Shown here in pieces: positions 1,959 to 38,900 of a DNA stretch of 64,000 nt. Numbering within the stretch: the first letter of the stretch is position 1; every line of letters starts with the position of its first letter. The DNA is taken from assembly GCA_964422025.1 (NCBI GenBank), contig CAYQYZ010000003.1, positions 4,280 through 68,279 of the forward strand, in the 5' to 3' direction. Made by a program: the position numbers and the translations under genes. This stretch comes from an uncultured Gammaproteobacteria bacterium (GTDB lineage Bacteria; Patescibacteriota; Microgenomatia; UBA1406; HO2-37-13b). The notes under the pieces are model-generated. The model was not told the DNA's origin. It ran no database searches and saw only the letters and a program-made list of their open reading frames with translations.

Positions 1959-4493
1959 ATGGCTATGCAGAAAGAGGCAAAATCACGAGTAAAAATAAAT
2001 AAACTTCTCGAAGAATCAGGGTGGCATTTTGAAGATTCCGAAAATGGCAGAGCAAATATACAACTTGAGCCAGGCGTAAAATATTCACAGCTTGGAGATG
2101 ACTTTGAAAACGAAGTTCACGGATTTATCGATTTTCTTCTTCTTGATAAAGACGGACGGGCACTTGTGGTGGTTGAGGCCAAGAAAGAATCTGTTGATCC
2201 ACTTTCAGCCAAGGAACAAGCCAGAAACTACGCTCGCAACGCCGGGGCTCGTTTCGTCATTCTCTCAAACGGCAATATCCATTATTTTTGGGATACAAAA
2301 CACGGAAACCCCGACACCATTTCCCGTTTTCCAACGCAGGATTCCATTACTCAATATGAAAAATACACTCCGAATCCTCTTGAACTTGCACAAACGGTCG
2401 TTGATGAAAATTATATTGTTTCAACACAAATTCCAACCTTCGCCACAGATCCAGCATTTCAAAACGAAGCAACGCGCGTAGAATATTTGAAAAATAATAA
2501 ACTAAAACAACTCCGTCCGTATCAGGTACAGGCAATCAAGGCGCTTCAAGAATCTGCCCAAGGCGGAAGTCAAAGGTTTTTATTTGAAATGGCAACTGGA
2601 ACAGGAAAAACTCTCATTTCTGCAGCTGTCATAAAACTGTTTCTCAAATCCGGCAACGCGCGTCGTGTGCTTTTCCTCGTTGATCGCCTTGAACTAGAAG
2701 ATCAGGCACAAAAAGCGTTTGTCCAATATCTCGGCAAGGATTATCGAAGTGTTATCTATAAAGAAAACAAAGATTCGTGGGCAAATGCTAGTGTCGTTGT
2801 CTCAACTATTCAGACATTTCTCGCAGGCGATCGTTATAAAAAAGAATTTTCGCCAACTGATTTTGAACTTGTTATTTCAGACGAAGCTCATCGTTCTATC
2901 GGTGGCAACAGTCGCGCCGTTTTTGAATATTTTGTTGGTTACAAACTCGGACTTACTGCTACGCCAAAAAATTATTTGCGAGGATTTGACGCAGAAGGCG
3001 CAGATAGTCAAAGAGAATACGAACGTCGACTTTTGATTGATACCTACAAAACTTTTGGATGTGAAGCTGGTAATCCGACTTTTTCCTATGATCTAGAAAA
3101 GGGTGCGGAGGAAGGTTATCTCATCAAACCAACTCTTGTCGATGCGCGCACAAACATTACAACCGAACTTCTCTCGGAAGAAGGATATGCCGTCCACACG
3201 CTCACTGAAAGCGGAGAAACTATCGACGAAACTTTTAATGAAAAGCATTTTGAACGTAAAATTTTCAATGAAGAAACCAATATCGCTATGTGTAAGGCGC
3301 TTATCGACAACGGATTATTTGATCCTGTCGCCAAGCAACTTGGCGTAGATCTTTTTGGAAAAACTATTGTCTTTGCTGTATCTCAAAAACACGCCGCTCG
3401 ACTAACAAATATCTTAAATAAAATCGCTTTTGAAAAATGGCCAGAGCAATACAGCGAATCAAATTTTGCAATGCAAGTTTCTTCGCAAGTTGCAGACGCT
3501 CAGCAAATGACAATAAATTTTGCTAACAATCGCCTTGGCGGACAGGCAAATTCGCCCGAGGGCTACGACACAAGCAAAACACGCGTTGCTGTGACTGTCG
3601 GAATGATGACAACTGGTTACGATTGCCAGGACTTACTCAACATCGCCCTCATGCGTCCTATTTTCTCGCCAACTGATTTCGTGCAGATAAAGGGAAGAGG
3701 TACTAGAAGATACCTATTTGAATATAATGATTACGTTAACGAGCCTTTGAGCGAATCAAAAGAAAAGTTTAAGTTTTTTGATTTTTTTGCGACCTGTGAA
3801 TACTTCGAAAGTGAATTTGAATACGATGAAAAGATTAAGCTTCCTACTCATACTGCACCACCAAGTGGTCCCGGAAAAAATGATCCTATGGGGGATCCTC
3901 CACCAGAATCATTCAAGGGTCCAATAGATCTATCCACCAACGACGAACTTGCTACAATCTCTGAAACTCCCGAAGGTGTGATTATGCGTATTGACCGCGA
4001 AGGCTTCAAGCGTGCTGTAGAGGAAGATGTATTCCGCAATGAAACACTCAAAAATTTGTGGGAGAACGGCAACGCCGAAGAAGCCGAAGACTTTGCCAAA
4101 AAGGAGATCTTTGATCGACCGAAATACTTCCTTAATCTCGATAAAATCCGCAAAATCTTCAATGTTGACCGTCGCATTACCGTTAAAGAATTTTTGCAGG
4201 TAGCTTTTGGTGACAAAGAAACATTTGAAATGAAAGATGAGCTTCTGGAGTCAGAATGGGAAAAGTTTATGGAGGTGAATCCGGTGGACCAAGCGCACTA
4301 CGCACCTGTCAAAATGTTTTTCAAAGCGTATGTAATGGACAAAGATGTGCGCGAAATCATCGCCAGCCGTCAAACTGGTCGCTTCAACACGGAATCATCG
4401 TTCCATTTTGACGAATATCAACAGCTCAACGGATTTAAAACAATCGTTCCGCAATATGTCCGTGATTATGCTTATCATTTAACGAACCTATAA
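1959..4493 (+). CDS. hsdR: type I restriction enzyme R subunit-like protein (N-terminal nuclease domain + SF2 helicase + EcoEI_R_C-like tail)
   Basis: N-terminal FIDFLLLDKDGRALVVVEAKKE is a D...EAK nuclease motif. Helicase motifs are present: MATGTGKT, VISDEAHRS, LGLTATP, QIKGRGTR. The start may be ATG 1965 if the transcript is leaderless. Confidence 0.85.
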   Translation: MAMQKEAKSRVKINKLLEESGWHFEDSENGRANIQLEPGVKYSQLGDDFENEVHGFIDFLLLDKDGRALVVVEAKKESVDPLSAKEQARNYARNAGARFVILSNGNIHYFWDTKHGNPDTISRFPTQDSITQYEKYTPNPLELAQTVVDENYIVSTQIPTFATDPAFQNEATRVEYLKNNKLKQLRPYQVQAIKALQESAQGGSQRFLFEMATGTGKTLISAAVIKLFLKSGNARRVLFLVDRLELEDQAQKAFVQYLGKDYRSVIYKENKDSWANASVVVSTIQTFLAGDRYKKEFSPTDFELVISDEAHRSIGGNSRAVFEYFVGYKLGLTATPKNYLRGFDAEGADSQREYERRLLIDTYKTFGCEAGNPTFSYDLEKGAEEGYLIKPTLVDARTNITTELLSEEGYAVHTLTESGETIDETFNEKHFERKIFNEETNIAMCKALIDNGLFDPVAKQLGVDLFGKTIVFAVSQKHAARLTNILNKIAFEKWPEQYSESNFAMQVSSQVADAQQMTINFANNRLGGQANSPEGYDTSKTRVAVTVGMMTTGYDCQDLLNIALMRPIFSPTDFVQIKGRGTRRYLFEYNDYVNEPLSESKEKFKFFDFFATCEYFESEFEYDEKIKLPTHTAPPSGPGKNDPMGDPPPESFKGPIDLSTNDELATISETPEGVIMRIDREGFKRAVEEDVFRNETLKNLWENGNAEEAEDFAKKEIFDRPKYFLNLDKIRKIFNVDRRITVKEFLQVAFGDKETFEMKDELLESEWEKFMEVNPVDQAHYAPVKMFFKAYVMDKDVREIIASRQTGRFNTESSFHFDEYQQLNGFKTIVPQYVRDYAYHLTNL

Positions 4494-4505
4494 AGGAATA
4501 AAATT

Positions 4506-6950
4506 ATGAATACAGATACAAAACGACATATTGATTCCGCTCGCCAAGTGCTGGTTGGCGTAGTGCCAAACCCGACTTCGCAGATCGACCAGATCACCAA
4601 CGCGCTCATCTATAAATTTATGGATGACATGGATCAGGCAGCTATCAAACAAGGCGATGAACCCTCGTTTTTCGTTGATGATTTAGAAAACTACGCCTGG
4701 ACGCGCCTTATGGATCCGCGCATGGGTAATCAAGAGCGCATGAATCTCTATTCCGAGGCGCTTATCAAATTCTCCCAAGCAAAACAACTTCCAGAGCTTT
4801 TCCGCGGGATTTTCAAATCTGCCTTTTTGCCATATCGCTCACCTGAAACGCTCGGACTATTTTTAAAAGAGATTGATTATTTTGACTACTCACATCCCGA
4901 AGAACTTGGCAATGCTTACGAATATCTGCTTTCCATAATGTCGTCCCAAGGCGATGCCGGACAATTCCGCACACCTCGCCATATTATTGACTTCATCGTG
5001 GAAGTTGTGAACCCAACGAAAGACGATAAAGTGTTAGACCCTGCTTGTGGAACAGGCGGATTTTTGGTCAGCTCGTATACACATATTTTGGCACAGCACG
5101 ATGGTAAAGACGACCCAAAGAAAAAAGAAAAGCCACTCACACCCGACGAACGCAAGAAATTGATGGCGAATTTTGAGGGCTATGACATAGACCCGACGAT
5201 GGTGCGTATTGCACAGGTCAATATGTATTTGCACCAATTCAAAAATCCCAAAATTTTTCAATATAATACTCTTGCTGATGAAGGATTTTGGAATGATAAA
5301 TTTGATGTCATTCTTGCTAATCCACCGTTTATGTCTCCGAAGGGAGCGGGAAAGCCACATAGTAAATTCACTATTCCCTCCAGTCGTTCGGAAGTTTTGT
5401 TCGTGGATTACATAATGAATCACCTGCGACCAAAAGGCCGTGCTGGCATCATTGTGCCAGAAGGAATTATCTTTCAATCCAGTACTGGACATAAACAACT
5501 TAGAAAAAACCTCATACAAGATGGTCTCTATGCTGTTGTCAGTTTGCCTTCAGGAGTATTCGCACCATACAGCGGTGTTAAGACCAGTATTTTGCTTTTT
5601 GATATAGAGTTATCAAAACAGAAAAATGATATTTTATTCATTGATATAAAAGACGTTGGTGTTAGTCTTGGGGCAACTCAAAGAGCTATTGATGTAAATG
5701 ATTTAATCCCTGCATTGTTGGTAATAAGATCCTTTCAAAGCGGCGAAACATTTGAACCAAGCAAATTAGCATTCACAACCACTAAACAAGAAATAATTAA
5801 TAACGCCTACGATCTTTCATCTGCCAAATATAGAAAACGAACTATTGTAAATACGGAAAAACCTTTCGTTCTGCTTTCTGATGTGTGTAATATTACAAAA
5901 GGGAAATCATCTAGCACCAAAACAGAAAGTGGGCCATATCCACTTTATTTGACAGCAGAAAATAACAAGTCATCCGACCATTTTGATTTTGATGGTGAAG
6001 GAGTTGCTGTGCCACTAATTTCTGCAACTGGGCATGGTAAGGCAGCAATTAACCGAGTTCACTTTGTGACAGGCAGATTTGCACTGGCTAATTTATTAGC
6101 TTTTCTTGAACCAAGAAATGCACAAGAATTGAGCGCAGAATATCTTTATCATATTTTAGATAGTGCAAAAAATGAAATAGCAAGGCTCATGAAGGGGGCA
6201 GCAAATGTTTCGATGAAAACGAGCGATCTTGAGGTCTTTCAAATCCCACTTCCTTCCATAGAAATCCAAGAGCAAATAGTAGCGGAGCTTAACGGCTACG
6301 CAGGCATCATCGCCGGCGCCAAACAAATCGCCCAAAACTGGAAGCCTAAAATAAATATTGATCCGAATTGGGCGAAGGTGAAGTTGGGGGAAATTGCCGA
6401 TTTTATTGGTGGCTATGCGTTTAAGAGTGAGGAATTAAAAAAAGAAAAATCTAGCGATATAGACTTACCTGTAATTAAAATTGGAAATGTCGGCAGAAAT
6501 GGAAATGTTGAGATCGAGGACGCGCAATATTTTCCAAACAATAAATCACTAGAAAAGTTTATTGTAAATAAAGACGATATTGTTATCGCCATGACTGGTG
6601 CAACCGTTGGGAAAGTTGCTGTTTCTAAATTTGATAATTTACTTCTCAACCAGCGTGTTGGTCTTGTTAGACCAAATGAGCAGCGACTTTCTAAATATTT
6701 TCTAAAGTCAGTTTTATTTTCTAATGAATTTTACGAATACTGTCAGGTGACTGCAGGTGGTGGAGCTCAAGGAAATATTTCCCCAAATCAAATAAAAGAA
6801 TATGAAATTCCTCTCCCATCTCTCGCCATTCAAAAACAAATTGTGGAAAAAATAGAAGCCGAGCGCGCCCTCGTCGAATCCGCTAAAAAACTGATTGATA
6901 TTTACGAACAAAAGGCCAAAGAAACCATTGCTAAACTTTGGAAAGAATAG
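4506..6950 (+). CDS. hsdM: fused type I N6-adenine DNA methyltransferase and specificity subunit (HsdM-HsdS fusion, two TRDs)
   Basis: Carries VLDPACGTGGFL (AdoMet motif I) and ILANPPF (motif IV). The C-terminal half holds two HsdS-type target-recognition regions, each followed by the conserved helix (LPSIEIQEQIVAEL and LPSLAIQKQIVEKIEAE). Confidence 0.85.
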   Translation: MNTDTKRHIDSARQVLVGVVPNPTSQIDQITNALIYKFMDDMDQAAIKQGDEPSFFVDDLENYAWTRLMDPRMGNQERMNLYSEALIKFSQAKQLPELFRGIFKSAFLPYRSPETLGLFLKEIDYFDYSHPEELGNAYEYLLSIMSSQGDAGQFRTPRHIIDFIVEVVNPTKDDKVLDPACGTGGFLVSSYTHILAQHDGKDDPKKKEKPLTPDERKKLMANFEGYDIDPTMVRIAQVNMYLHQFKNPKIFQYNTLADEGFWNDKFDVILANPPFMSPKGAGKPHSKFTIPSSRSEVLFVDYIMNHLRPKGRAGIIVPEGIIFQSSTGHKQLRKNLIQDGLYAVVSLPSGVFAPYSGVKTSILLFDIELSKQKNDILFIDIKDVGVSLGATQRAIDVNDLIPALLVIRSFQSGETFEPSKLAFTTTKQEIINNAYDLSSAKYRKRTIVNTEKPFVLLSDVCNITKGKSSSTKTESGPYPLYLTAENNKSSDHFDFDGEGVAVPLISATGHGKAAINRVHFVTGRFALANLLAFLEPRNAQELSAEYLYHILDSAKNEIARLMKGAANVSMKTSDLEVFQIPLPSIEIQEQIVAELNGYAGIIAGAKQIAQNWKPKINIDPNWAKVKLGEIADFIGGYAFKSEELKKEKSSDIDLPVIKIGNVGRNGNVEIEDAQYFPNNKSLEKFIVNKDDIVIAMTGATVGKVAVSKFDNLLLNQRVGLVRPNEQRLSKYFLKSVLFSNEFYEYCQVTAGGGAQGNISPNQIKEYEIPLPSLAIQKQIVEKIEAERALVESAKKLIDIYEQKAKETIAKLWKE

Positions 6951-6952
6951 GT

Positions 6953-7504
6953 ATGAATAATCAAAAAATGCAATTATATTTATGGGAAGGGTTGCATTGG
7001 GATATTGATTATGACATTAACGGTAATCTCTACTCACAAATTCCACTTTGTCCTAAACAGAAGTGTAATTGTAAATTAAAGAAATCCAAAGAGAAATATT
7101 CTATTGGAGAATATAAATATTGTTGTTCAAGGTGTGATTTCAAACTAACCTTAAATAAATCTATAGAGGAAAAAGCTTCAGATCTTTTGGATATTATTGA
7201 ATCTCAAAAATATAAAGATGCCGAAATTATTAATATCGATGGTGAACTTGTAAAAGTACAAAGAGAGCAAATCACAGATTTTGACTACTGGGTAGATGTA
7301 AAGATATCAAAGAATAGAAAAGATGAAGTGCAACTTATGGTACTTGCTGGAAGTAAAAAATTAAAAGACAAAACGCAATTATTTTTAGATCCAAAGAATG
7401 AAAAGGTTTCATTTGATCAGAATAATGACCACCCAACAAAGATTTTTTCAAAAGTTGTAGCAAGGTTTAAAAATTCAAAGATGGAAATTTCAGATGATAA
7501 TTAA
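6953..7504 (+). CDS. hypothetical zinc-ribbon protein, translationally coupled to hsdMS
   Basis: The ATG is 2 nt after the hsdMS stop. The Cys pattern C-x4-C-x-C...CC-x2-C lies at aa 33-61. No family recognised. Confidence 0.6.
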   Translation: MNNQKMQLYLWEGLHWDIDYDINGNLYSQIPLCPKQKCNCKLKKSKEKYSIGEYKYCCSRCDFKLTLNKSIEEKASDLLDIIESQKYKDAEIINIDGELVKVQREQITDFDYWVDVKISKNRKDEVQLMVLAGSKKLKDKTQLFLDPKNEKVSFDQNNDHPTKIFSKVVARFKNSKMEISDDN

Positions 7505-7509
7505 GTTTT

Positions 7510-8319
7510 ATGTATGAAGATGCACAAGAAATTTTTGACTATTTGCCCATCCGCCGAAATCTACCAGAAAACGACTATATCGACCACCTCTGGCAGTCAT
7601 ACACTGCACTAGAAAACAGCGGAAATGATGCTCGTTTTTTCTCAATAATGCCTTTTCATTTACTATTTATGCTAGGCCTTCAATATAAGGTTATTAGACT
7701 TGCAAAATGCCATAAGCAAGCGATAGATCTATTCTTTTCTGGAGTTGGTGGACGAAATAAGAACAAGCTCATTTTAAATCAACGATCAGTTTTTGATATT
7801 GCGTTAATTGGTGAAAAGACACTAATAGACGTATTCCAATTGATCAACCTTCAACAGATTGATATAAAAAGAATCAAGGAGCTAATTGATAAAAGGAACG
7901 ATACTCTTGCACATGCGAAAGGGTCGATTGATCGTGAACCTGAAAAGAGAATTGCTAACTATATAGATTCACTAAGTGTAATTCAGAAGCAGTGCTATCA
8001 GTTAAATCAGGATTTTGTTGAGAGGTTTATAGCTGAAATACAATCAAACGATGACACGGGGTTATTGTTGGACGTTCAGTTTCTTAAGTTGGGATTATGT
8101 CTTCATGATATAGATGACATAATTCAGATAATATTGGAAAGTCAGAAATTAAACATGCCGCATTGGGAACAGATTACAAATCTAGGGCTAGCATTATCAT
8201 ATGATAAAACCATACGAATTCTTCGGGATGTTTCTACTGGGAATTTTAATGAAAAATATAAAATATTGGCTAGGTCAATATTAAGTAAATATGATGATGA
8301 AGATTCTATTATTTTGTAA
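7510..8319 (+). CDS. hypothetical helical protein with HEPN-like RX5H motif
   Basis: Starts 5 nt after the preceding stop. The motif KRNDTLAH (R129...H135, nt 7894-7914) fits the HEPN Rx4-6H signature. The fold assignment is inference. Confidence 0.55.
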   Translation: MYEDAQEIFDYLPIRRNLPENDYIDHLWQSYTALENSGNDARFFSIMPFHLLFMLGLQYKVIRLAKCHKQAIDLFFSGVGGRNKNKLILNQRSVFDIALIGEKTLIDVFQLINLQQIDIKRIKELIDKRNDTLAHAKGSIDREPEKRIANYIDSLSVIQKQCYQLNQDFVERFIAEIQSNDDTGLLLDVQFLKLGLCLHDIDDIIQIILESQKLNMPHWEQITNLGLALSYDKTIRILRDVSTGNFNEKYKILARSILSKYDDEDSIIL

Positions 8320-8619
8320 TCTTACCTCAAATCCTAAGTCGCATCTTGGATAAGTACTCTCTCTGATCGACTATAAAATATACTCTGCGTCCCACCAATC
8401 CATGCTATACTGTTCCCCACATAAATCATACGACAACGTTTTAAAATAATTACTGAAGCATTTGTCAGATTTGGGATTCCATCAGACAAAATCCCATATA
8501 CTAAAGTTGATGAAGTCAATCGAAGACATGTTGATATTGACAGTTTTTCAACAAACTAAGGACTAATAGAATATATATCAATATTTAAAAAATACATTCT
8601 TAGTAAGTAATAGAACAAT

Positions 8620-9204
8620 ATGACAGAATCACAAATACTTAACACAGTTTCAGTTTACTTTAAAGAACATGGTTATGTTCCAAAAAGAGTAGTAGCTAAA
8701 AAACTGCTGATTGGTCAGAAATCACCTGATTTTGAAATATATTACTCTGGTGAATTGGACTACTATTGTGAGGTTAAAAGTCCTTTACTATTAATAAATA
8801 ATAAAACGCAACTTTTTCAGTGGACCACTACTATTTCAAAATTAAGAAATTTTATTCAATCTGCAGTACTTCAATTTACAGACATGGATTCTGATCACAA
8901 TAAACCATGGGTGCTACTCTTTACTTCAGATCATATGCAATTAAATTGGACAAACATGACTCATGCAATAACAGGTATTGTGGGATACGGTCAAACTATA
9001 ATTCGTGACTTAAGAGAATATGTAAAAGATAGTGAAATAGATTTAAAGAAAATAGACATGTTTATTTGGTTTCAAATGAATCAAAGCACGGACATTCATC
9101 AGGTCAGATTCTTCATTAATGCTGGCTCAAAATTTAAGAGAAGATGCGAAAATATACAGGAAAAACTTAGACCGGTTGCAGGTGAAGTCTCTTTTAATAA
9201 TTGA
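8620..9204 (+). CDS. hypothetical PD-(D/E)xK nuclease-fold-like protein
   Basis: SPDFEIYYSGELDYYCEVKSP matches the PD...(13 aa)...E-x-K core motif (nt 8725-8778). Confidence 0.5.
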   Translation: MTESQILNTVSVYFKEHGYVPKRVVAKKLLIGQKSPDFEIYYSGELDYYCEVKSPLLLINNKTQLFQWTTTISKLRNFIQSAVLQFTDMDSDHNKPWVLLFTSDHMQLNWTNMTHAITGIVGYGQTIIRDLREYVKDSEIDLKKIDMFIWFQMNQSTDIHQVRFFINAGSKFKRRCENIQEKLRPVAGEVSFNN

Positions 9205-9260
9205 TATACTGTGCTTAGAAAGCTTGAAGTGGGTTCCTGAAGATAAATCAAAAGTAGTAA

Positions 9261-9884
9261 ATGAATAATATGAATGACGCATATAAAACAGAGCGAAAAG
9301 CAGTACAAGTAGATACAATGTGGAATGCCGACACAATCGGGCCTGCTTACTTTTGTATTTATTGCTTCCATGAAAATAAAGATTATCCAGCATATTGTTC
9401 TCACTGTGGACATGTCTCAACAATTTATAAGGCACCTAGTGATGTAAAAAAATTTACTCGATGTCATAATCATAAAGATAAAAATGCTGTCGGATGGTGT
9501 GCATTGTGTGCTAAACCAATCTGCGAGATTTGTGATAGTGAAGGCAAGAAACCAGATGATTATTTCGACTACACTGTTAATTTGAAATGTAAGACATGCG
9601 TTGAAGAATCAAATAGGCTACAGCAAGAACATGAACAACATGTTATTGCGGAAAAAGCTTGTTCTAGACATGAAGAAATAGATTACATTAATAAATGTAC
9701 AACATGTGGTACTCAGATGTGTTCTAACTGTTCCTATGGTTTAGTAACAATAAAAGGTAGATTCTTTAAAAGCGAAGAAGTAACTGGGCCTTATTGCCTT
9801 CTTTGTTTAAGGCAGGCGCGAGTAGAAAAAACATCTAGCAATAGTGGGAGTTGGAAGCCATACGAAGCAGATAAAAAGTTCTAG
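9261..9884 (+). CDS. Cys-rich zinc-finger protein: N-terminal zinc ribbon plus two B-box-like modules
   Basis: C-x2-C-x10-C-x2-C is followed by two copies of C-x2-H-x8-C-x2-C-x4-C-x2-C (C68-C91 and C134-C157). Each copy is followed by a distal CxxC. Confidence 0.6.
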   Translation: MNNMNDAYKTERKAVQVDTMWNADTIGPAYFCIYCFHENKDYPAYCSHCGHVSTIYKAPSDVKKFTRCHNHKDKNAVGWCALCAKPICEICDSEGKKPDDYFDYTVNLKCKTCVEESNRLQQEHEQHVIAEKACSRHEEIDYINKCTTCGTQMCSNCSYGLVTIKGRFFKSEEVTGPYCLLCLRQARVEKTSSNSGSWKPYEADKKF

Positions 9885-9940
9885 TTTGTCCCATTGAATG
9901 GGCACATGTAAAATCCCCTCACCTCCTGTATACTATCCCC

Positions 9941-11443
9941 ATGCCTCTTTCAAAATCCGACTTCATGCTGTATCTTCGCCATCCGGGTTGGTTGTGGCTT
10001 AAAAAGCATAATAAGGAAATTCTTCCGATTGTGGATACTGTTTTGCAATCTATGTTTGACGAAGGTAATGTGTTTGAACAGTATGCGAGCCAATTGTTTC
10101 CCAGTGGAGAACGGGTTGGTTTTAGCATGCAAGAACGCAATTACGGATCAATGCCAGTGCGTACCATGCAGGTAATTAAACAAGGAGCTAGCACAATTTT
10201 CCAAGGTCGACTTGAAGCAATTAATTGCACCTGTATATTTGATGTTATACAGCGGGTAGGCGATAGCGAAACGGAATTTGATCTCTATGAAATTAAATCG
10301 AGTACGAGTGTTAAGGTTGATCATATTCACGATCTAGCATTCCAAACAATTGTATTAGAAGAAGCCGGTTTAACCATACGCAATATCTATGTAATCTATG
10401 TGAATAATGAATATGCCCGATCCGGAGAAATTGATGTGAATTTGATTACAAAACAATCAGAAGTTACGCAAGAAGTTCGCCAGCATTTAGATGAAACACG
10501 CGAATCTATTAAGAATGCATTATTAGTGGCAGCCAGTCCAACTCCTCCGGATTTTTCACCACGTCATGTTGGTTTGGGCGCGTTAAAAGAATGGCTTGAT
10601 ATTCATAAACTACTGCATCCTGCAAAACATGACTATCCAATTTCTAAATTAACCCGAATTTCTGCACAGCTCTATGGTGAATTGGAAGATTTAGGAATTG
10701 ATCATATAGCTAATATTCCCGAAACGCTCGATCTTCATCCAAAACAAAAAACGCAAATTACTGCAACAAAAAATAATGCGCGGGCAGTCGATACAAAAGC
10801 TATTTCGTCATTTCTGGAATCCATAAGCTACCCATTGTATTTTTTAGATTACGAAACGTATGCGCAAGTAATTCCACGATACGACGGTTTTGTTCCGTAT
10901 CAACAGGTGCCATTTCAATATTCGCTTCACATACTATCAAAACCAAATGGAGAAGTAACGCATAAAGAATTTCTTCATCTTTCTACTTCTAATCCGGTAG
11001 TTCCATTGGTTGAGCAACTCCAAAAAGATATCGGCTCAACAGGAACCGTCATGGTGTGGTATGAAAAGTTTGAAAAAACGCGAAATACTGAAATGGGAAA
11101 GCTAGTGCCAGAATATGCCCCATTTTTAGAACAACTTAATAATCGAATTATCGATTTAATGGTTCCTTTTTCGACTGATTTATTTATCGATAAAGATTTT
11201 TATGGAAGCGCATCGATTAAGAAAGTGTTACCGGTGTTAATTCCTGAGCTGTCGCATAAGGATTTAGCAATTCAAGAAGGAATGACCGCATCGCTTACGT
11301 GGAAAAAGCTTGTATTTGACAATGCCTATTCAGAAAATAAAGATGAAATTATTTCCCAATTATTAGAATATTGTAAGCTCGACACCTTAGCGATGGTAAA
11401 ATTATATGAGTTTTTGATTAACATTAAACAATTTGAATCATAA
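9941..11443 (+). CDS. DUF2779-type protein: N-terminal RecB/Cas4-like PD-(D/E)xK nuclease fused to C-terminal DEDD (RNase H-like) exonuclease
   Basis: Contains FDVI...DLYEIKSS (D...ExK), then YFLDYETY (DxE exo motif I), and near the C-terminus YCKLDTLAMVKLYEFL (exo motif III-like). TATACT at 9929-9934 lies 6 nt before the ATG. Confidence 0.65.
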   Translation: MPLSKSDFMLYLRHPGWLWLKKHNKEILPIVDTVLQSMFDEGNVFEQYASQLFPSGERVGFSMQERNYGSMPVRTMQVIKQGASTIFQGRLEAINCTCIFDVIQRVGDSETEFDLYEIKSSTSVKVDHIHDLAFQTIVLEEAGLTIRNIYVIYVNNEYARSGEIDVNLITKQSEVTQEVRQHLDETRESIKNALLVAASPTPPDFSPRHVGLGALKEWLDIHKLLHPAKHDYPISKLTRISAQLYGELEDLGIDHIANIPETLDLHPKQKTQITATKNNARAVDTKAISSFLESISYPLYFLDYETYAQVIPRYDGFVPYQQVPFQYSLHILSKPNGEVTHKEFLHLSTSNPVVPLVEQLQKDIGSTGTVMVWYEKFEKTRNTEMGKLVPEYAPFLEQLNNRIIDLMVPFSTDLFIDKDFYGSASIKKVLPVLIPELSHKDLAIQEGMTASLTWKKLVFDNAYSENKDEIISQLLEYCKLDTLAMVKLYEFLINIKQFES

Positions 11444-11453
11444 ATACCCATTC

Positions 11454-12593
11454 ATGCTTCGTCATACAAATAATAAATCACTCGGTCATCGTATCCTGAA
11501 TATCGTAATGGCTTTTGCAAAAATTGCATTCGTATTGTTTGTCTTAACCTTTCTTCTTGAACTGCAATTGGAGAATGATGACCTATCAAAACGGTTAGAA
11601 AATATTGAAAACAAACTTGGTGGTTCGTCAAAGATTACGTGTAATGAAGCTGATTCAATCAAAAAAGCTCGGCGGTCAGTTGTTCGAGTTGTTGGCGGTG
11701 AAGCGGAAGGCTCAGGTTTTGCGCTGAATTTTATTCAGAACACGATTATTACCAACTTTCATGTTATCGAATTTGAACCAAGTCCCAAGGTAATTTTTCC
11801 CGATAACACATTTGCAACCGCAACAATTATGATGGCTGATAAAGATGCTGATATTGCCGTTCTTAAAATTGATAAAGTCCTTCCTAAACTCTCATTGGGA
11901 TCATCAAACGATCTTACGTCACCATCATCAGTGTTGGCTCTTGGATACCCTCTTGGTGGACAACTTATTGGAGAGACGTCAGTTGTTAAAGGATCATATT
12001 CAGCACAAAGGATTGCCAAGGATATTGATGTCTCCTATATTCAAACAGATGCTACATATAATGGTGGCATGAGCGGAGGACCGATGATCGATGAGTGCGG
12101 TGCGGTAGTGGGTATGACAACGGCAGGAACCGGTGGTCTTGGCCTTGGGATTTCAATTGAATCGCTTAAGGACAAAATTATTCAAATGAAACTTGCATCA
12201 GACCCAGTGCATGATATTGTGCGGATTGATTTTCAACCGAATAAAAGCCCACTCGATGCCGTTTCTTCTTTTTATAACTATCTTAAAATTAGAAAGCTTG
12301 AAAGTGCGTTTGCATTGTTGTCTGACAATTTTCTAAAAGGGGGTAGTTTTGCCCAATGGAAAAAAGGGTATCAGTCGCTTCTTGATACGACTGTTATTAA
12401 AATTGTGGCAGATGAAACAAAGGAAAATGTAGTGAATGTCAAATTATCCACTAAAAATATGATCGATGATGAAATTGTATATAAATATTTTGAGGGTTCG
12501 TGGGAAGTGAAAGAAGTTAATGGTAACCTTACGCTTTGGCAACCAAAGATCCGCGAAGTAGAAGATCCAAGCCCTATCTGGTTTTATGAGTAG
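11454..12593 (+). CDS. membrane-anchored trypsin-like (S1/DegP-type) serine protease with uncharacterised C-terminal domain
   Basis: An N-terminal TM helix is followed by triad contexts TNFHV, DIAVLKI and GMSGGPM. The ATG is 10 nt after the DUF2779 stop, and the TTG-extended ORF from 11433 overlaps that stop. Confidence 0.7.
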   Translation: MLRHTNNKSLGHRILNIVMAFAKIAFVLFVLTFLLELQLENDDLSKRLENIENKLGGSSKITCNEADSIKKARRSVVRVVGGEAEGSGFALNFIQNTIITNFHVIEFEPSPKVIFPDNTFATATIMMADKDADIAVLKIDKVLPKLSLGSSNDLTSPSSVLALGYPLGGQLIGETSVVKGSYSAQRIAKDIDVSYIQTDATYNGGMSGGPMIDECGAVVGMTTAGTGGLGLGISIESLKDKIIQMKLASDPVHDIVRIDFQPNKSPLDAVSSFYNYLKIRKLESAFALLSDNFLKGGSFAQWKKGYQSLLDTTVIKIVADETKENVVNVKLSTKNMIDDEIVYKYFEGSWEVKEVNGNLTLWQPKIREVEDPSPIWFYE

Positions 12594-12631
12594 TATACTT
12601 TACGCGACAGTAAACCTATTTTGAGATATAT

Positions 12632-12979
12632 ATGAACTACACCAACTTACTTCTCGTCATCCTAATACCAATCCTTTTGTATATTCTATATCATTTACGG
12701 ATTCTTACTGGTTTACTGCGCACGCGAAATGAAATAGAAGCGCAAGAGTTGGATCTGTTGCTATCCGAAGATGATAGAAAACCAGATCCGTTATTTAATG
12801 AGGTAATCAGCATTACACAAGAACACGATAAAATTACGACCGAATTGCTGCAAAATATATTTGATATCGGGTATGCCCGAGCATGTCAAATAATTGACCA
12901 GCTTGAAGAAGTAGGAATTGTATCAGCGCAGGTTGGCAATGAACCACGCAAGGTAATACGGAAGGTGCGAACTAATTAG
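12632..12979 (+). CDS. membrane-anchored stand-alone FtsK-gamma (winged-helix) domain protein
   Basis: An N-terminal TM helix is followed by LLQNIFDIGYARACQIIDQLEEVGIVSAQVGNEPRKVI. This aligns without gaps to the gamma domain of the ftsK in this window ([38 protein letters not shown]). Confidence 0.7.
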   Translation: MNYTNLLLVILIPILLYILYHLRILTGLLRTRNEIEAQELDLLLSEDDRKPDPLFNEVISITQEHDKITTELLQNIFDIGYARACQIIDQLEEVGIVSAQVGNEPRKVIRKVRTN

Positions 12980-12995
12980 TGAACTACTAAAAAAC

Positions 12996-13484
12996 ATGAA
13001 AAATAACACCATAATTCACCCACAAGTAAAAATTGGTCACGTGCATTTAACCGTTGCTGATCTTGATCGGTCTTTGGCTTTTTATCGTGACATTCTAGGA
13101 TTTCAAGTAACCGCGCAATATGGTGACCAGGCGGTGTTTTTATCGGCAGGCGGGTATCATCATCATATTGGCCTTAATACCTAGGCCGGAAAAGGGGTAA
13201 CTCCGCCACCTGCGCAGCATTCGGGTTTGTATCATTTTGCAATTTTATTTCCAACGCGGCGCGAATTGGCAACCGTTTATAAGCGGCTTAAAGACGCGCA
13301 GTATCCACTATCTGGCGCATCTGACCACGGTGTTTCTGAAGCTATTTACTTAGAAGACCCCGATTCTATTGGTATTGAACTATACGTTGATCGACCAGAA
13401 AAAGAATGGATCTGGGAAAATGGAAAAGTTGCTATGACCAGCAAACCGCTTGATTTGGAAGCGTTGCTTAAAACTCTCGATTAG
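12996..13484 (+). pseudogene. VOC/glyoxalase-dioxygenase family gene interrupted by a single in-frame TAG
   Basis: ORFs 12996-13184 and 13227-13484 are in the same frame. Read-through gives GGYHHHIGLNT-*-AGKGVTPPPAQHSGLYHFAILFP. The TAG at 13182 sits where I recall family members having Trp (TGG). Confidence 0.6.
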
Positions 13485-13531
13485 CAACGATAATATATCG
13501 ATAAATGATACTACGGTAGTAGAATATGATC

Positions 13532-14008
13532 ATGAAAAAAGGTTCAACGTTATTTTTAAAGATTGTTATTGTACTTATCGCAATCGGAGTGCTTGCGGGC
13601 TTAATTATTTTTCCTCAAACAGAAGGAAGAGCTGCTAACCTGGGTCTCATCGACATCTATAAAGATCCCCTTATCATTTTCGTTTATATCGGCTCAACTC
13701 CATTCTTCATCGGGCTGTATCAAGCGTTCAAATTGCTAAATCTTATCGATAAAGGCAAAGCATTTTCTCACGGTGCTATTACTACATTCAGGAATATGAA
13801 AATTGCTTCTTTTACACTTATTGGATTTATTGTGGCGGTACTACTTTTAATCCGTTTTAATGCTCCTGGCGAAGACGCAGCCGGTCCAACAGGATTGGGA
13901 ATAATTGTGTGTTTGATAACTGCTGTTATTGGAACTGCTGCTGCTATTTTTCAAAAACTTCTACAAAATGCGGTGGAAATAAAATCGGAAAATGATCTTA
14001 CTGTATAA
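13532..14008 (+). CDS. DUF2975-like membrane protein
   Basis: Four predicted TM segments, and the typical pairing with the downstream YozG-like small HTH regulator. TAGAAT at 13520-13525 suggests a leaderless start at the second ATG. The ORF track starts at 13526. Confidence 0.55.
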   Translation: MKKGSTLFLKIVIVLIAIGVLAGLIIFPQTEGRAANLGLIDIYKDPLIIFVYIGSTPFFIGLYQAFKLLNLIDKGKAFSHGAITTFRNMKIASFTLIGFIVAVLLLIRFNAPGEDAAGPTGLGIIVCLITAVIGTAAAIFQKLLQNAVEIKSENDLTV

Positions 14009-14014
14009 AAAAAT

Positions 14015-14221
14015 ATGGCAATAATAATCAATATCGATGTAATGTTGGCTAAACGTAAAATGAGCGTTACGCAGCTTACCGAAAAAGTAGGGATAACAAT
14101 GGCCAATCTTTCTATCTTAAAAAATGGAAAGGCAAAAGCTATCCGTTTTTCAACGTTGGAAGCGATCTGTGAAGCATTAGATTGCCAACCAGGAGATATT
14201 TTGGAATATAGAAAAGATTAA
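14015..14221 (+). CDS. small Cro/C1-type HTH transcriptional regulator (YozG-like)
   Basis: 68 aa containing MSVTQLTEKVGITMANLSILKNGKAKAIRFSTLEAICEALDCQPGDILEY. Confidence 0.8.
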   Translation: MAIIINIDVMLAKRKMSVTQLTEKVGITMANLSILKNGKAKAIRFSTLEAICEALDCQPGDILEYRKD

Positions 14222-14237
14222 TGCTATACTCAAATAT

Positions 14238-14852
14238 ATGGACCTCCTTCCCCAACTACTCAGCATATTTACACTCGGCTTTATTGGTGGATCAATTCCC
14301 GGATCTATTTTAGCTTCTACTTTTACTGAAGCTCTTAGAAAAGGCTTCATGGGAAGTCTACGAGTAATTATATTTGCACTAATTTCTGAAACCATCGTAG
14401 CCTCGTTAATAATGTTCGCACTCTTTTCGGTAAATATTCCTCAAAGTATTTATTACGGAATTTCCCTTATCGGTGCAGGAGTGTTAGTATGGCTTGCAAA
14501 GCAGGTATGGTCAATCACAAAAATAAACGATAAAGGAGAGCTATTCAGTTTCAAAAAAATCTTTTTGTTAACCATATTTAATGGGCCCCTTTGGATCGTG
14601 TGGTCCACAGTATGTGTTCCGCAAGCGTATGAATTAAATCAACAGATCTCAGGGGGACTCATAATTTTCATGATTCTTTTTGAGCTCGGATGGCTTACTG
14701 CAACACTTTTGTTAACATTCCTATTTTCCCGTTTTAGAACGTTACTTATAAAAGGCAAAATGATATCAGTCGTATTTAAAATATTTGCTTTTACCCTACT
14801 ATTCTTTGCAATTCGATTATTTCTGACAAGCGTCACATTTTTTTCTAAATAA
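14238..14852 (+). CDS. LysE-family-like exporter membrane protein
   Basis: About six TM segments with N-terminal FTLGFIGGSIPGS, like the LysE PGP motif. TATACT at 14225-14230 lies 7 nt before the ATG. Confidence 0.45.
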   Translation: MDLLPQLLSIFTLGFIGGSIPGSILASTFTEALRKGFMGSLRVIIFALISETIVASLIMFALFSVNIPQSIYYGISLIGAGVLVWLAKQVWSITKINDKGELFSFKKIFLLTIFNGPLWIVWSTVCVPQAYELNQQISGGLIIFMILFELGWLTATLLLTFLFSRFRTLLIKGKMISVVFKIFAFTLLFFAIRLFLTSVTFFSK

Positions 14853-15130
14853 TTCTTACACCTACCACTTTCTAAGCATGAGCATCATTTCATAATTTGA
14901 ACTTGAAAGAATGGGAAGTAAGTACAATAGCTATTTCAAGTATTCTCCAAAAGATTTTCGTGCCGTCGATCCATTCGGTTATTATTTGCGATTTGTAGAG
15001 CGATATAATTGGGTTGACGGTAGAGATGAAAAGGGAGACTCTGTTTCCAAATAAGAAGTCCGAACTTAGTCCAGTCGGGGAGCAAATAAACCTGTTTATA
15101 GAATTACTTTAATTTGCTAACATATAATAT

Positions 15131-15559
15131 ATGTCAACACTAAATCCTTGGATTAACTTCAACGGTAATGCGCAAGAAGCATTTACGTTTTATAAATCAG
15201 TATTCGGCACGGAGTTTGCCAAAGTAGTACGTTTCAAAGACATTGCGAGTGCTGAATTTCCAATACCAGAAAAAGAGGAAAATAAAATAATGTACATTGC
15301 ATTACCTATCGGTACAGATTCTATGCTGATTGCAAATGATGTTCCGGAGGTTATGGGGCAAGTAAATGAGCGTGAAAATAGAAGCAAGATTCTAGTAAGT
15401 ACGGAAAGTAAAGAAGAGGCTGACAGATTATTTACGGGCCTCTCGGCTGGAGCAGAAGTAGAAGGACCTATGGGAGACAGTCCATGGGGCACATACGCAG
15501 GTATGTTTCGAGATAAATTTGGTATTGAATGGATAATAGAATTTTCTCCTGATAATTAA
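15131..15559 (+). CDS. VOC family protein (PhnB/YjdN-like)
   Basis: 142 aa with N-terminus LNPWINFNGNAQEAFTFYKSVFG and a C-terminal DKFGIEW-type motif. Confidence 0.65.
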   Translation: MSTLNPWINFNGNAQEAFTFYKSVFGTEFAKVVRFKDIASAEFPIPEKEENKIMYIALPIGTDSMLIANDVPEVMGQVNERENRSKILVSTESKEEADRLFTGLSAGAEVEGPMGDSPWGTYAGMFRDKFGIEWIIEFSPDN

Positions 15560-36134: not shown

Positions 36135-38900
36135 TCAAGGTTTAGGTTGTTTCTTAATTGTTTTTTTGATTACTTTTGGAGCAGTCTTTTTAATTGGTTT
36201 TACCACTTTGGTTTTTTGAGGAATGTATTTTGTACTTACGCCGAGCGTTCCGGTGTTGGCTGGAGCCACACCTCCACACGATGAGACAATTGCGTAATAT
36301 CCACCAACTTTGCCAATCGTCGCCACAGAGTTGTTAACTTGATCAACAACTGATGGTAGTAGCTTCCAGTTCGAGCCATCTAATGAATGCGCCAACTTAA
36401 GCGAGCCTTCTCTAAAGCTATTCGCTTTATTGCCCGGTGGAATGAGATCTAAATCGTTGTAGCCCAATGAGATTATTGATGATTTGAGTTGTAGTTCAGG
36501 AATGATGGCTGCAGGAGAAGAAGATGATCCTTTGGGCGGATATGCTTTAAACCACATTTTCTGCACCCTACCTACTTGCCACGATATACATGATCCTGAC
36601 CTGATTCCCAAGATATTTCCGGCAAAGACCATATTCGCATTTTTATTTAAAATTGATTGGCCGGTGATTGGATTTACGAATAGGGAATTGCCTGACGAAG
36701 GAATGCTTGCCTGCGATGACAAGAATGCATTCATGGTGAGCGTGTTGGGAGATAAGATGACGGAAGCCTTTTGTCCTTGAGTATTTGAGTCTCTGATTGG
36801 CGATAGCGCTCCCCCCGATGCATTGCTGCCACTTGATCCAAGAGAGACTTGTGGGGCATCATCTCCCGGTGCAGCCTGTTGTGCCGGACAGCCACTTGTT
36901 TTAAATTCACTGTCAGAACCAGTAGTAGTATTTCCTTCTGCATCTGTCGATTTCGCTCGATAATGATATGTGGTACATGTTGCAAGCCCGGTGAGCGTAA
37001 CACTATGTGATGTTACGCGTGGAGATGTGTCTGCTTCAATAGTTGTTGTTCCATAACTCGTTGTTGTTCCATATTCAACTTGTGAGCTTGAGGCTTCATT
37101 TGTGGTCCATGCAATGGTTACATCTGCAGCAGCGGTTGAAGTAATTGACGACGCTGAAGGGGACGTAACATCAGGGCTCCAAAATGAGATAAACCCCGTA
37201 TAGTCTGCTGCGTACACCTCGCCACCATCTAAGAAATCTCCGTCCCCATTAAGATCTGCATTTGAAGCAGTATACCCTGATGCGGCAATACGACCATCGC
37301 TATCGGTGGCAATATATTCCACATTATCATCGTCTGTTCCACCAATCCTACGAGCCCATTGATGGACGCCTGATCCACTAAATACTGACAAAAACCCATC
37401 TTCAGAACCAAGATTCGTCTCAGCAGTATCTAATATATCTTGATCTCCATTAATATCAAATGCAGAAGAATTATAGCCAGCAATAAGAAGCTCTGTATTA
37501 TAGAAATATGTAGGTGCATAGGTTCGTGGAGTATCCCCAAACCGCTTAGCCCAGGCATGAGTACCGTCAGAATTAAAAACTGATATAAAATTTAAGTAGC
37601 TTGAGTTAACGTCTTCTGCTCCGCCGTCTGTTGAATCTCCATCTCCATTCAAATCAGTGGCAGCGCCTTGATTGTAAAAGTTCACAGTCAGTTTGTTTTC
37701 TGATGTATATTGAGTTGAAAGTGAAAAGTTATCGCTCGTGTCAAGGCCAGTACTTCCTAAGCGCTTAGACCACTGATAACTTCCTGAAGAGTCAAAAACA
37801 GAGATTACCCAATCAGTAGATCCATAGCCGGTTGCACTTTCACCGTTGTTATCATTTGTGTCATCATCGCCCGTTAAATCCCTCGCGCCAGTAACGCTTC
37901 CGCTATAGGCAATGTTTCCGTTACTATCCACGTCTATTGCAAAATTATTTTGCATTCCAATCCTTTCAGCCCACTGATGAGTTCCTGAAGAATTAAAAAC
38001 TGAAATTGCAGCTGTGCCTGTGGCTGTTTCGTTTGAATCAGACATGTCGCCATCGCCATTAAGATCAGCATTACCACTGAGGATTGCTGCTATGACAATG
38101 TTATTGTTAGGTGCAATTTCGATATTTTGCAGTGAATCACTTGTAGTGGTCCCAAGTCGTTTTGTCCATTGATTAACTCCGGCTGAATTAAATACGGTTA
38201 CGCCTATATCGTCCGAACCATAACCTACCGCACTCTCTCCAGAATCTGTAAAATCGCCATCGCCGTTTAAATCGAACGATGCAGCTGGTATTTCTCCATA
38301 TAGCACAAGATTGTTGTTTGAATCGGCTTTTACTTTTAATGCAGAGTCTCCACTTGTGCTTCCAAGTCGCTTTGACCATTGGTGTGTCCCTGAAGAATTA
38401 AATACTGTGATAAAACGATCGTTACTCCCGTAACCCGTTGCACTTTCACCAGTATCAGTCTTATCGCCATCATTGTTCAAATCAGCGTCTCCAGTGACTG
38501 AGCCAACGACGATAATATTTCCATTACCATCGACTATGGCAGATGGCGTGTTATCTAAACCAGTACCACCCAGACGCTTTGCCCATTGAAAAGTACCCGT
38601 GTAATCGAACACTGAAACCAAAATATCTAAACTTCCAAACCCCGCATTGTTTTCCGCACTGTCATTTGAATCTTCATCGCCGTTTAGATCAAGTAGAGCA
38701 TCACTGTCAGCCATGGTGACCACGACGCGTTCAGAACCCATAGAGATACTTCTTATATACGCACTGTTGGGATAGCCAAGACGCTTACTCCACTTGGAAG
38801 TTGGCGCAGCAGCAAAAAGGGAGCGAGGGAATGATCCAATAAGAATGGTAAGTAGAAAGACAGCTAGAAGTTTTTGATAATAAGATTTGTGATTGGTCAT
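36135..38900 (-). CDS. large secreted repeat protein: beta-propeller-type repeats with DxNGDGD calcium-binding-like loops, an FN3-like domain and a Lys-rich C-terminal tail
   Basis: Signal peptide. About eight repeats of VFNSSGTHQWSKRLG...DLNGDGD. An FN3-like segment IAWTTNEASSSQVEYGTTTSYG...YHYRAKSTDAEGN. The C-terminus is KKTAPKVIKKTIKKQPKP. Confidence 0.65.
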   Translation of the reverse strand: MTNHKSYYQKLLAVFLLTILIGSFPRSLFAAAPTSKWSKRLGYPNSAYIRSISMGSERVVVTMADSDALLDLNGDEDSNDSAENNAGFGSLDILVSVFDYTGTFQWAKRLGGTGLDNTPSAIVDGNGNIIVVGSVTGDADLNNDGDKTDTGESATGYGSNDRFITVFNSSGTHQWSKRLGSTSGDSALKVKADSNNNLVLYGEIPAASFDLNGDGDFTDSGESAVGYGSDDIGVTVFNSAGVNQWTKRLGTTTSDSLQNIEIAPNNNIVIAAILSGNADLNGDGDMSDSNETATGTAAISVFNSSGTHQWAERIGMQNNFAIDVDSNGNIAYSGSVTGARDLTGDDDTNDNNGESATGYGSTDWVISVFDSSGSYQWSKRLGSTGLDTSDNFSLSTQYTSENKLTVNFYNQGAATDLNGDGDSTDGGAEDVNSSYLNFISVFNSDGTHAWAKRFGDTPRTYAPTYFYNTELLIAGYNSSAFDINGDQDILDTAETNLGSEDGFLSVFSGSGVHQWARRIGGTDDDNVEYIATDSDGRIAASGYTASNADLNGDGDFLDGGEVYAADYTGFISFWSPDVTSPSASSITSTAAADVTIAWTTNEASSSQVEYGTTTSYGTTTIEADTSPRVTSHSVTLTGLATCTTYHYRAKSTDAEGNTTTGSDSEFKTSGCPAQQAAPGDDAPQVSLGSSGSNASGGALSPIRDSNTQGQKASVILSPNTLTMNAFLSSQASIPSSGNSLFVNPITGQSILNKNANMVFAGNILGIRSGSCISWQVGRVQKMWFKAYPPKGSSSSPAAIIPELQLKSSIISLGYNDLDLIPPGNKANSFREGSLKLAHSLDGSNWKLLPSVVDQVNNSVATIGKVGGYYAIVSSCGGVAPANTGTLGVSTKYIPQKTKVVKPIKKTAPKVIKKTIKKQPKP

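Follow-up and report, generated by a model that had tools for sequence, protein, structure and literature searches.

A DUF2779 nuclease, an S1C-NTF2 protease and a small FtsK-gamma protein at the edge of a restriction-modification island: a probable mosaic junction in a Microgenomates-group chromosome

Three adjacent genes in an uncultivated bacterium raise the question of whether a nuclease, a membrane-anchored protease and a membrane-tethered DNA-binding domain form one dedicated system, or whether their neighbourhood has another origin. The genes lie in a stretch of 64,000 nucleotides of contig CAYQYZ010000003.1 (assembly GCA_964422025.1; hereafter the window, to which coordinates refer unless a locus is named). 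This DNA is from the chromosome of a Microgenomates-group bacterium within the candidate phyla radiation (CPR) and carries the chromosomal markers DnaK, PNPase, FtsK, MurJ, and BipA. The three open reading frames (ORFs) are all on the plus strand, at 9941-11443, 11454-12593 and 12632-12979, with spacers of 10 and 38 nt. An initial annotation had given these ORFs, their coordinates and gaps, and a TTG-extended protease start that overlaps the nuclease gene; all were borne out when the ORFs were re-read, the TTG being at 11433. That annotation had also proposed that the three genes constitute a single membrane-coupled system. We consider it probable, at roughly 0.6, that the trio is instead a mosaic junction at the 3' edge of a variable restriction-modification (R-M) island and not a dedicated three-gene system.

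Only four close relatives of the small gamma protein were found among 5.8 billion clusters, and the contigs that carry them, here called the sister strains, were compared with the window by blastn. The sister strains come from samples ERZ27275293 and SRR27787827. Homology starts at 9900-9922, stops at 11415 and resumes at 12624-12631. Identity is 93% to L064/L065 and L067/L068 over DUF2779 (9900-11415), 89-95% over the gamma gene (12624-13007), and 88-94% over most shared genes further downstream. The segment 11416-12623 (plus strand), which takes in the final ~8 DUF2779 codons, the spacer and the protease gene in full, has no counterpart in the sister strains and is defined by these breakpoints as a strain-specific cassette. 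In the corresponding slot, L067/L068 carry an ORF of 176 aa with an FtsK_alpha domain, the stop of which overlaps the start of the gamma gene (L067 7474-8004), while L064/L065 retain only the first and last codons of this alpha ORF, an internal deletion having left 32 aa (L064 7896-7994). The more distant L066 displays the order alpha, gamma and PDDEXK_1 nuclease, with overlapping ORFs (alpha at L066 5941-6435). The sister-strain alpha ORFs, of 164-176 aa, consist of an FtsK alpha domain and a C-terminal hydrophobic helix, and overlap the start of the gene for the gamma protein with its transmembrane (TM) helix. The L067 alpha ORF is 62% identical to residues 238-321, in the alpha domain, of the full-length housekeeping FtsK encoded at 56470-58584 (plus strand; TM domain, alpha, beta, and gamma by profile matches). 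Because of this identity, the alpha and gamma ORFs are, judged by sequence, motor-less FtsK-derived paralogues, and the window FtsK is their likely source. Having been deleted in L064/L065 and replaced in the window, the alpha ORF is dispensable.

The boundary of the cassette carries a trace of its previous location. The closest loci to the protease cassette are L069 (87% identity) and L001/L002 (80%), where the protease follows PDDEXK_1, a 250-aa, four-cysteine, Cas4-like nuclease. The DNA of the end of the window DUF2779 gene and the spacer (..ATTAAACAATTTGAATCATAA; ..INIKQFES-stop) aligns with the 3' end of PDDEXK_1 in L069 (..GTAAAACAGTTTGACTCCTAA; ..AVKQFDS-stop). Because tail and spacer match in this way, the DUF2779-protease junction is, on the evidence of the alignment, the scar of a recent recombination (11416-11453, plus strand). 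At the same level of evidence, the protease is shown to have brought along the tail of PDDEXK_1, once its upstream neighbour, and to have displaced the alpha ORF. No direct or inverted repeats were found at the cassette boundaries, and nothing therefore points to a site-specific mechanism, whether integron- or dif-like. The order DUF2779-protease-gamma is repeated in an independent Logan assembly, L070. In L069, the protease has been cut to 307 aa by an insertion sequence (HTH_Tnp_1 and rve transposase; L069 8001-10333), and its leftover 3' end is detectable at 10109-10333.

As far as these sequences go, the trio is thus shown to be a strain-specific arrangement made by cassette replacement, and the linkage of its three genes is not conserved. 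DUF2779 and the protease are shown to be widespread and highly conserved CPR genes, unlike the variable cargo of the island. In this lineage, DUF2779 is followed by an FtsK-derived pair, a motor-less alpha ORF and a TM-anchored gamma ORF. Recombination swapped the alpha ORF, in the window strain, for a membrane-anchored S1C-NTF2 protease found CPR-wide, the incoming piece dragging with it the 3' tail of the PDDEXK_1 gene that usually precedes the protease. The three genes probably share a transcript yet act separately. DUF2779, in the cytoplasm, most likely processes or degrades DNA ends; the protease, if topology rules hold, would act outside the membrane on extracytoplasmic proteins; and the gamma protein may serve as a membrane-tethered DNA- or recombinase-binding module at the cytoplasmic face. 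A promoter and terminator scan of 6500-15500 returned 38 sites against 34±6 expected, which is chance level, and no plus-strand terminator-like site between the three genes, the latter being its only bearing on operon structure.

The domain calls of the initial annotation (dual nuclease, trypsin-like protease, and FtsK gamma) agree with Pfam matches, invariant residues and folds, and the motifs that it quoted proved to be the family-invariant catalytic residues in 20 DUF2779 and 20 protease homologues. Purifying selection acts on all three genes. The first gene encodes a DUF2779 dual nuclease of 500 aa, which spans the PF11074 profile entirely (positions 1-126; E=1.8e-39, 135.3 bits against a cut-off of 23.3). 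Matches to Cas4 (Pfam and PADLOC, 1e-3 to 2e-4), to RNase_H_2 (Pfam) and to the UU173 and TM0106 RecB-like families of NCBIfam are weak. The Cas4-like PD-(D/E)xK half occupies about nt 10193-10498, and about nt 10832-11431 belong to the DEDDy 3'-5' exonuclease half (both plus strand); the residues D101, E117, K119, and Q135 of the former and D303, E305, Y477, and D481 of the latter are invariant in the 20 homologues. A sequence search against the PDB found nothing, and a fold search was therefore needed. In the AlphaFold model (predicted local distance difference test, pLDDT, 91), the N-terminal half resembles Cas4 (8D3L chain I, 4R5Q), Exo5 and AddB, and the C-terminal half the DEDDh nucleases MrfB (8UN9) and ERI2. 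Ratios of nonsynonymous to synonymous substitution (dN/dS) of 0.05-0.07 for DUF2779 and of 0.09-0.15 for gamma, the latter over dS up to about 1.2, indicate that these are functional genes. The protein database yielded more than 7,400 relatives of DUF2779; among those listed, the best 120 are 51-62% identical over their full length, save one 96%-identical sister-strain protein, and those among them with a named source are Patescibacteria. A phage origin is unsupported, given that IMG/VR holds 13 contigs with DUF2779 and only one with this protease family. PDDEXK_1 and DUF2779 were also considered as orthologues, but a profile-profile comparison (hhalign probability 0.4%, E=0.14) was not significant, and the two are treated here as putatively different lineages of the Cas4 superfamily.

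From its ATG, the second gene encodes a membrane-anchored S1C (HtrA-like) serine protease of 379 aa with an NTF2-like C-terminal domain. A TM helix (about nt 11493-11561, by hydropathy) precedes the S1C core (about nt 11709-12116, by Trypsin_2 and HtrA-family matches) and the NTF2-like domain (about nt 12237-12569, by model fold), all on the plus strand. The Pfam Trypsin_2 match has E=1.4e-22 and the matches to HTRA1 and DegQ E about 1e-31; NCBIfam matches of HtrA/DegP type are far under the equivalog cut-offs. Pfam found no PDZ domain, the NTF2-like domain standing in its place. The model (pLDDT 77) has a single long helix at its N-terminus, then the S1C core, and at its C-terminus a domain built from three helices and a four-stranded sheet. 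Its best Foldseek match in the PDB is 7SJY, the S1C-NTF2 bi-domain of RsgI9 (E=1.2e-16), followed by HtrA, DegQ, and DegS. The N-terminal membrane anchor of the initial annotation is thus retained; the 130-aa C-terminal domain that it had left unassigned is NTF2-like by fold match, since 7SJY is the best match of the model. The triad of H103 (nt 11760-11762), D133 (nt 11850-11852), and S207 (nt 12072-12074; all plus strand) is invariant in 20 homologues and, together with the C-terminal domain, across CPR and Omnitrophota homologues at 55-60% identity. Because the triad is invariant, the protein is probably an active protease. Relatives number more than 4,400 matches at 55-60% identity, and with the NTF2-like domain assigned, an S1C-NTF2 ectoprotease family emerges that is very conserved in CPR and Omnitrophota. 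Between the window and L001, protein identity is 80% and DNA identity 78%, with synonymous sites saturated.

The third gene (12632-12979, plus strand) encodes a protein of 115 aa made up of a TM helix (about nt 12647-12715) and an FtsK-gamma winged helix (about nt 12782-12958), assigned by Pfam (PF09397; E=1.6e-18, 66.6 bits against a cut-off of 30.6), hydropathy and alignment with the gamma domain of Escherichia coli FtsK (PDB 2J5P). With the gamma domain of the FtsK encoded in the window it shares 45% identity. It was also considered as a fragment detached from the housekeeping FtsK, which the complete FtsK at 56470-58584, with a gamma of its own, rules out, and as a decaying pseudogene fragment, which the dN/dS of 0.09-0.15 rules out. 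Small gamma proteins are common in the databases: in a full HMMER scan, 117 of the top 149 gamma representatives were of at most 350 aa, most of them tandem gamma repeats. The representatives P0270, P0288, and P0305 combine gamma and alpha with no recognisable motor match. A literature search on stand-alone FtsK-gamma proteins found no paper.

By hydropathy, the protease and the gamma protein each have one strongly hydrophobic N-terminal helix. In the protease, the 13 residues before the helix include three K/R (R3, K8, and R13) and an acidic stretch follows it; in the gamma protein, five uncharged residues precede the helix and RTRNE follows. By the positive-inside rule, the catalytic and NTF2 domains of the protease should be extracytoplasmic and the winged helix-turn-helix (wHTH) of the gamma protein should be cytoplasmic, on the side of the DNA. 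The soluble domains are thus predicted to lie on opposite sides of the membrane, with ~5 gamma residues exposed to the protease. The predicted location of the protease agrees with that of HtrA proteases and with RsgI9, the closest structure, in which S1C-NTF2 is an ectodomain (PMC12203970). The initial annotation had suggested regulated proteolytic release of the tethered wHTH; the opposite-side topology and the few exposed residues speak against it, as does the rarity of gene linkage, gamma adjoining the protease or lying within two genes of it in 4 of 57 classified loci.

That count comes from a survey anchored on the protease, which covered 63 genome loci from CPR and Omnitrophota, 57 of them classified and 48 with 800 bp or more of upstream sequence. 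Directly upstream, and on the same strand, stood PDDEXK_1 in 8 of the 48, one of the eight being the gamma fusion of L015, DUF2779 in seven, gamma in one (L018) and another gene in 32; an AAA_15/21 ATPase is among these others, as is an HD protein that itself follows a TPR-PIN protein. The seven DUF2779 loci all belong to one group with other neighbours in common. In L016 gamma directly follows the protease; in L008 it lies at a distance of two genes. Two of the four linked gamma proteins are without a TM helix; those of L016 and L018 have a coiled coil in its absence.

A second survey was anchored on DUF2779 and covered 80 metagenome loci at 32-59% identity. Neighbourhood recurrence of the protease and gamma genes, which the initial annotation had named as a check, failed here: of the 54 loci offering 1.2 kb or more of downstream sequence, not one had the protease there, and gamma was adjacent in one (L075) of the 66 with at least 400 bp. 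In L135, a TM-gamma gene lies 1.1 kb upstream. Together with the sister strains, which have no protease in the slot, and the recombination scar, these counts contradict a three-gene system on the side of linkage. The slot upstream of DUF2779 is filled by dnaG-rpoD in some loci (survey loci L071-L150) and in many others by Type I, ISP or III R-M systems, GmrSD, SIR2-HerA, UvrD-type helicases or helicase-REase fusions, with gaps between defence genes and DUF2779 often of -20 to +9 nt. The pattern extends to a type I system in the window, a different type I system in L064, type III systems in L067 and L001, and an MmeI-type system with SNF2/PLD in L069. As the slot holds either dnaG-rpoD or widely differing defence systems, it has the look of a hotspot for defence islands, with a core nuclease gene at its flank.

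Behind the variable linkage there is a loose clade-wide pattern that is real: Cas4-family nucleases recur beside the protease and beside small gamma genes at the edges of R-M islands. Among remote small gamma proteins, PDDEXK_1 is immediately upstream in L170 and one gene upstream in L172, both with a gamma identity of only about 36-40%; none is nearby in L169, L173, and L178, where, in L178, gamma adjoins a type I R-M system. A gene of ~130 aa starting MNIYLDIDGV (weak HAD_SAK_2 match) is a fourth member of this loose neighbourhood, recurring near small gamma, near the protease and one or two genes after DUF2779 (L135 1798-2211, L172 1694-2104, L027 7115-7519, and L031 1552-1938; also L098, L103, L107, and L110).

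Several observations weigh against the trio being a mosaic junction and nothing more. The sister strains were seen as partial contigs only, and the topology assignments are prediction, not measurement. A Cas4-family nuclease adjoins the protease in 15 of the 48 loci, a non-random adjacency in CPR, with gaps of -11 to +63 nt from PDDEXK_1 and of 30-84 nt from DUF2779; two of the other upstream genes encode DEDD exonucleases (ExoX-like in L020 and PolB-exo-like in L023). Gamma touches the protease in L015, L016, and L018. In L015, a Daviesbacteria gene (4674-5549) encodes a four-cysteine PDDEXK_1 (Cas4-like) nuclease with an FtsK gamma domain fused at its C-terminus, and the S1C-NTF2 protease gene starts within it, the overlap being 11 nt, so that all three components stand together. 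Of the five remote small gamma proteins with usable context, two have PDDEXK_1 within one gene upstream. A recurring nuclease-protease-gamma theme has thus been re-created in the window, and it could be selected.

Should there be a functional tie, it is more likely to join the Cas4-family nuclease with gamma than with the protease. The strongest alternative, tentative and rather unlikely in our estimation, is that nuclease and gamma form a real unit, composed of DUF2779 or four-cysteine PDDEXK_1 and an FtsK-derived gamma, with or without the motor-less alpha, the protease being optional or unrelated. Gamma would bring the nuclease to DNA or to the membrane for the clean-up of restricted DNA, the processing of DNA ends or the handling of incoming DNA. 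The fusion in L015 argues for such a pair, although it is the sole case seen and none occurs among the top 149 gamma representatives. DUF2779 and gamma have been kept together in three sister lineages despite a varying middle gene, PDDEXK_1 takes part in overlapping ORFs with alpha and gamma in L066, DUF2779 and gamma are adjacent in L075, and the contexts of L170 and L172 extend the association to gamma proteins at 30-40% identity. Gamma is under purifying selection, and there are precedents for Cas4-family defence accessories and R-M neighbours (PMC12094033; PMC5704561). Set against this, gamma is near DUF2779 in only one or two of the 66-80 loci, and three of the five remote gamma contexts are without such a nuclease. 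In addition, the window gamma has Q in place of the arginine that we take to be equivalent to E. coli R1300.

A broader version would place the CPR Cas4-family nuclease (PDDEXK_1 or DUF2779) at the centre of a DNA-processing accessory, modular, membrane-associated and so far undescribed, at the 3' end of R-M and other defence islands, with small gamma, motor-less alpha and S1C-NTF2 ectoprotease as interchangeable partners. In that case, the gamma wHTH would direct the nuclease to DNA by sequence or orientation, as a counterpart in the style of KOPS (FtsK orienting polar sequences) to the control of RecBCD/AddAB by Chi, in genomes that may lack those enzymes, and the window would be one shuffled instance of the theme. 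We regard this as a long shot; if true, the accessory would be a new kind of DNA-processing aid in genome-reduced bacteria.

The system envisaged by the initial annotation, with the protease freeing or governing the tethered gamma wHTH, or with the three genes detecting incoming DNA and setting off the nuclease, is very improbable. The tight same-strand spacing with no terminator-like site between the genes would suit it, as would the presence of all components in L015 and the contact of gamma with the protease in L016 and L018, but in the latter two the TM anchor of gamma has not been kept. At the level of domains, but no further, the trypsin domain is similar to those found in fusions with known defence proteins: PADLOC-DB v2 returned domain-level matches to Cas4 and to the trypsin domain of RT-protease, LmuA and Avs1b, none for gamma, no system-level match, and no partner genes of known defence systems nearby. 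The closest relatives have no protease in the slot and the junction is scarred, no DUF2779 locus among the 54 has the protease downstream, the protease domain and that of gamma are predicted on opposite membrane sides, and the protease is conserved like a housekeeping gene, with 32 of 48 loci having neither Cas4-family nuclease immediately upstream. Mis-assembly of the window, which is from a metagenome-assembled genome and has homology breakpoints coinciding with gene ends, can be given next to no weight, for the order is repeated in L070 together with a split VOC gene downstream, a chimera would need two precise joins back into one synteny, and the joint keeps an intact reading frame and stop codon.

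A mosaic junction thus accounts best for the locus, and the evidence shows three members of known families joined by recent recombination rather than a new membrane-coupled defence or sensing system. The locus comes from an uncultivated CPR lineage and illustrates cassette replacement at a defence-island border cleanly and at the level of sequence. The recurrent grouping of nuclease, protease and small gamma in CPR offers a concrete and cheap hypothesis on DNA processing in genome-reduced bacteria after restriction or uptake.

The island itself begins with a type I R-M system (1959-6950, plus strand; Pfam and PADLOC), HsdR being followed by an HsdM-HsdS fusion; at this position the sister strains have a different type I or a type III system, and in L064 HsdR is directly followed by DUF2779. 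In the 844-aa HsdR, only N-terminal (HSDR_N) and helicase-type domains were detected, and the fusion (4506-6950, plus strand) is 814 aa long with N6_Mtase and two Methylase_S repeats. Four further plus-strand island genes (188, 269, 194, and 207 aa; 6938-9884) have no or weak family matches. The ORFs at 7510-8319 and 8620-9204 (both plus strand) match no family and have no blastn counterpart in L064/L065 or L067/L068, where homology runs from 9900-9922; the latter, of 194 aa, has a D...E-V-K pattern reminiscent of PD-(D/E)xK nucleases. The 207-aa Cys-rich protein (9261-9884, plus strand) has two zf-B_box matches (Pfam, E=2e-6) and no close family, the B-box zinc finger being a domain mostly known from eukaryotes.

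Downstream of the trio, the segment 13008-14221 is absent from the sister strains. The VOC/glyoxalase-family gene at 12996-13484 (plus strand) is split by an in-frame TAG (13182-13184) into ORFs of 62 and 85 aa in one frame, a split also present in L070, and is probably a recent pseudogene in another variable segment. It is followed in the strain-variable segment by a two-gene cassette (13526-14221, plus strand) of a DUF2975 membrane protein and a 68-aa HTH_26 (Cro/C1-type) regulator. Elsewhere in the window, adjacent minus-strand genes at 36135-38900 and 38962-40902 encode proteins of 921 and 646 aa, each with only a Pur_ac_phosph_N (FN3-like) match near the C-terminus, and may be paralogous surface proteins. 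Scanning the window for Rfam families and tRNAs gave no matches.

Each component has a described counterpart. The dual-nuclease architecture of DUF2779 is already published and not new: the combination of Cas4-like and 3'-5' exonuclease halves in PF11074 was inferred by Majorek et al. (2014; PMC3985635). MMSYN1_0389 of JCVI-syn3.0, a quasi-essential DUF2779 protein, has been analysed in detail, including the DEDDy variant with Tyr for His and the partial loss of Fe-S cysteines (PMC13621843); in both reports the nuclease activity of the family is a prediction. The window protein shares with PF11074 proteins such as MMSYN1_0389, to which the NCBIfam families UU173 and TM0106 RecB-like are related, a Cas4-like N-terminal half without the full four-cysteine cluster, a DEDDy C-terminal half of RNase H fold, conserved catalytic residues and small-genome bacterial hosts; nothing material differs, its only oddity being the chimeric last ~8 codons. 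In CPR and DPANN genomes solo-Cas4 genes are over-represented, and several DPANN genomes have them beside R-M genes (Hudaiberdiev et al., 2017; PMC5704561). The likeness to these solo-Cas4 and Cas4-like (PF12705) genes lies in the placing of a Cas4-family nuclease immediately behind R-M or defence genes of varied kinds, on the same strand; protease or gamma neighbours are unmentioned in those reports, where a defence role is implied.

The 115-aa protein shares with FtsK/SpoIIIE the homologous 60-residue winged helix, the KOPS-reading and XerD-activating wHTH, but consists of a TM helix and gamma alone, without the alpha/beta (RecA-like ATPase) motor. With HtrA, DegP and DegS, the protease has in common a homologous S1C core, the triad of the chymotrypsin fold and an expected extracytoplasmic location, but it is without PDZ and has the NTF2-like domain instead. 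In the fold and order of its two domains it is most like the RsgI9 ectodomain of Clostridium thermocellum (7SJY), S1C being followed by an NTF2-like domain C-terminal to a single membrane helix, although mutual identity is about 20%. As an anti-sigma factor, RsgI9 has an N-terminal domain in the cytoplasm, whereas the window protease has only ~13 residues before its TM helix and no Pfam match to the RsgI_N anti-sigma domain; and the S1C domain of RsgI9 has been described as protease-like and cellulose-binding (PMC12203970), whereas that of the window carries the invariant His-Asp-Ser triad.

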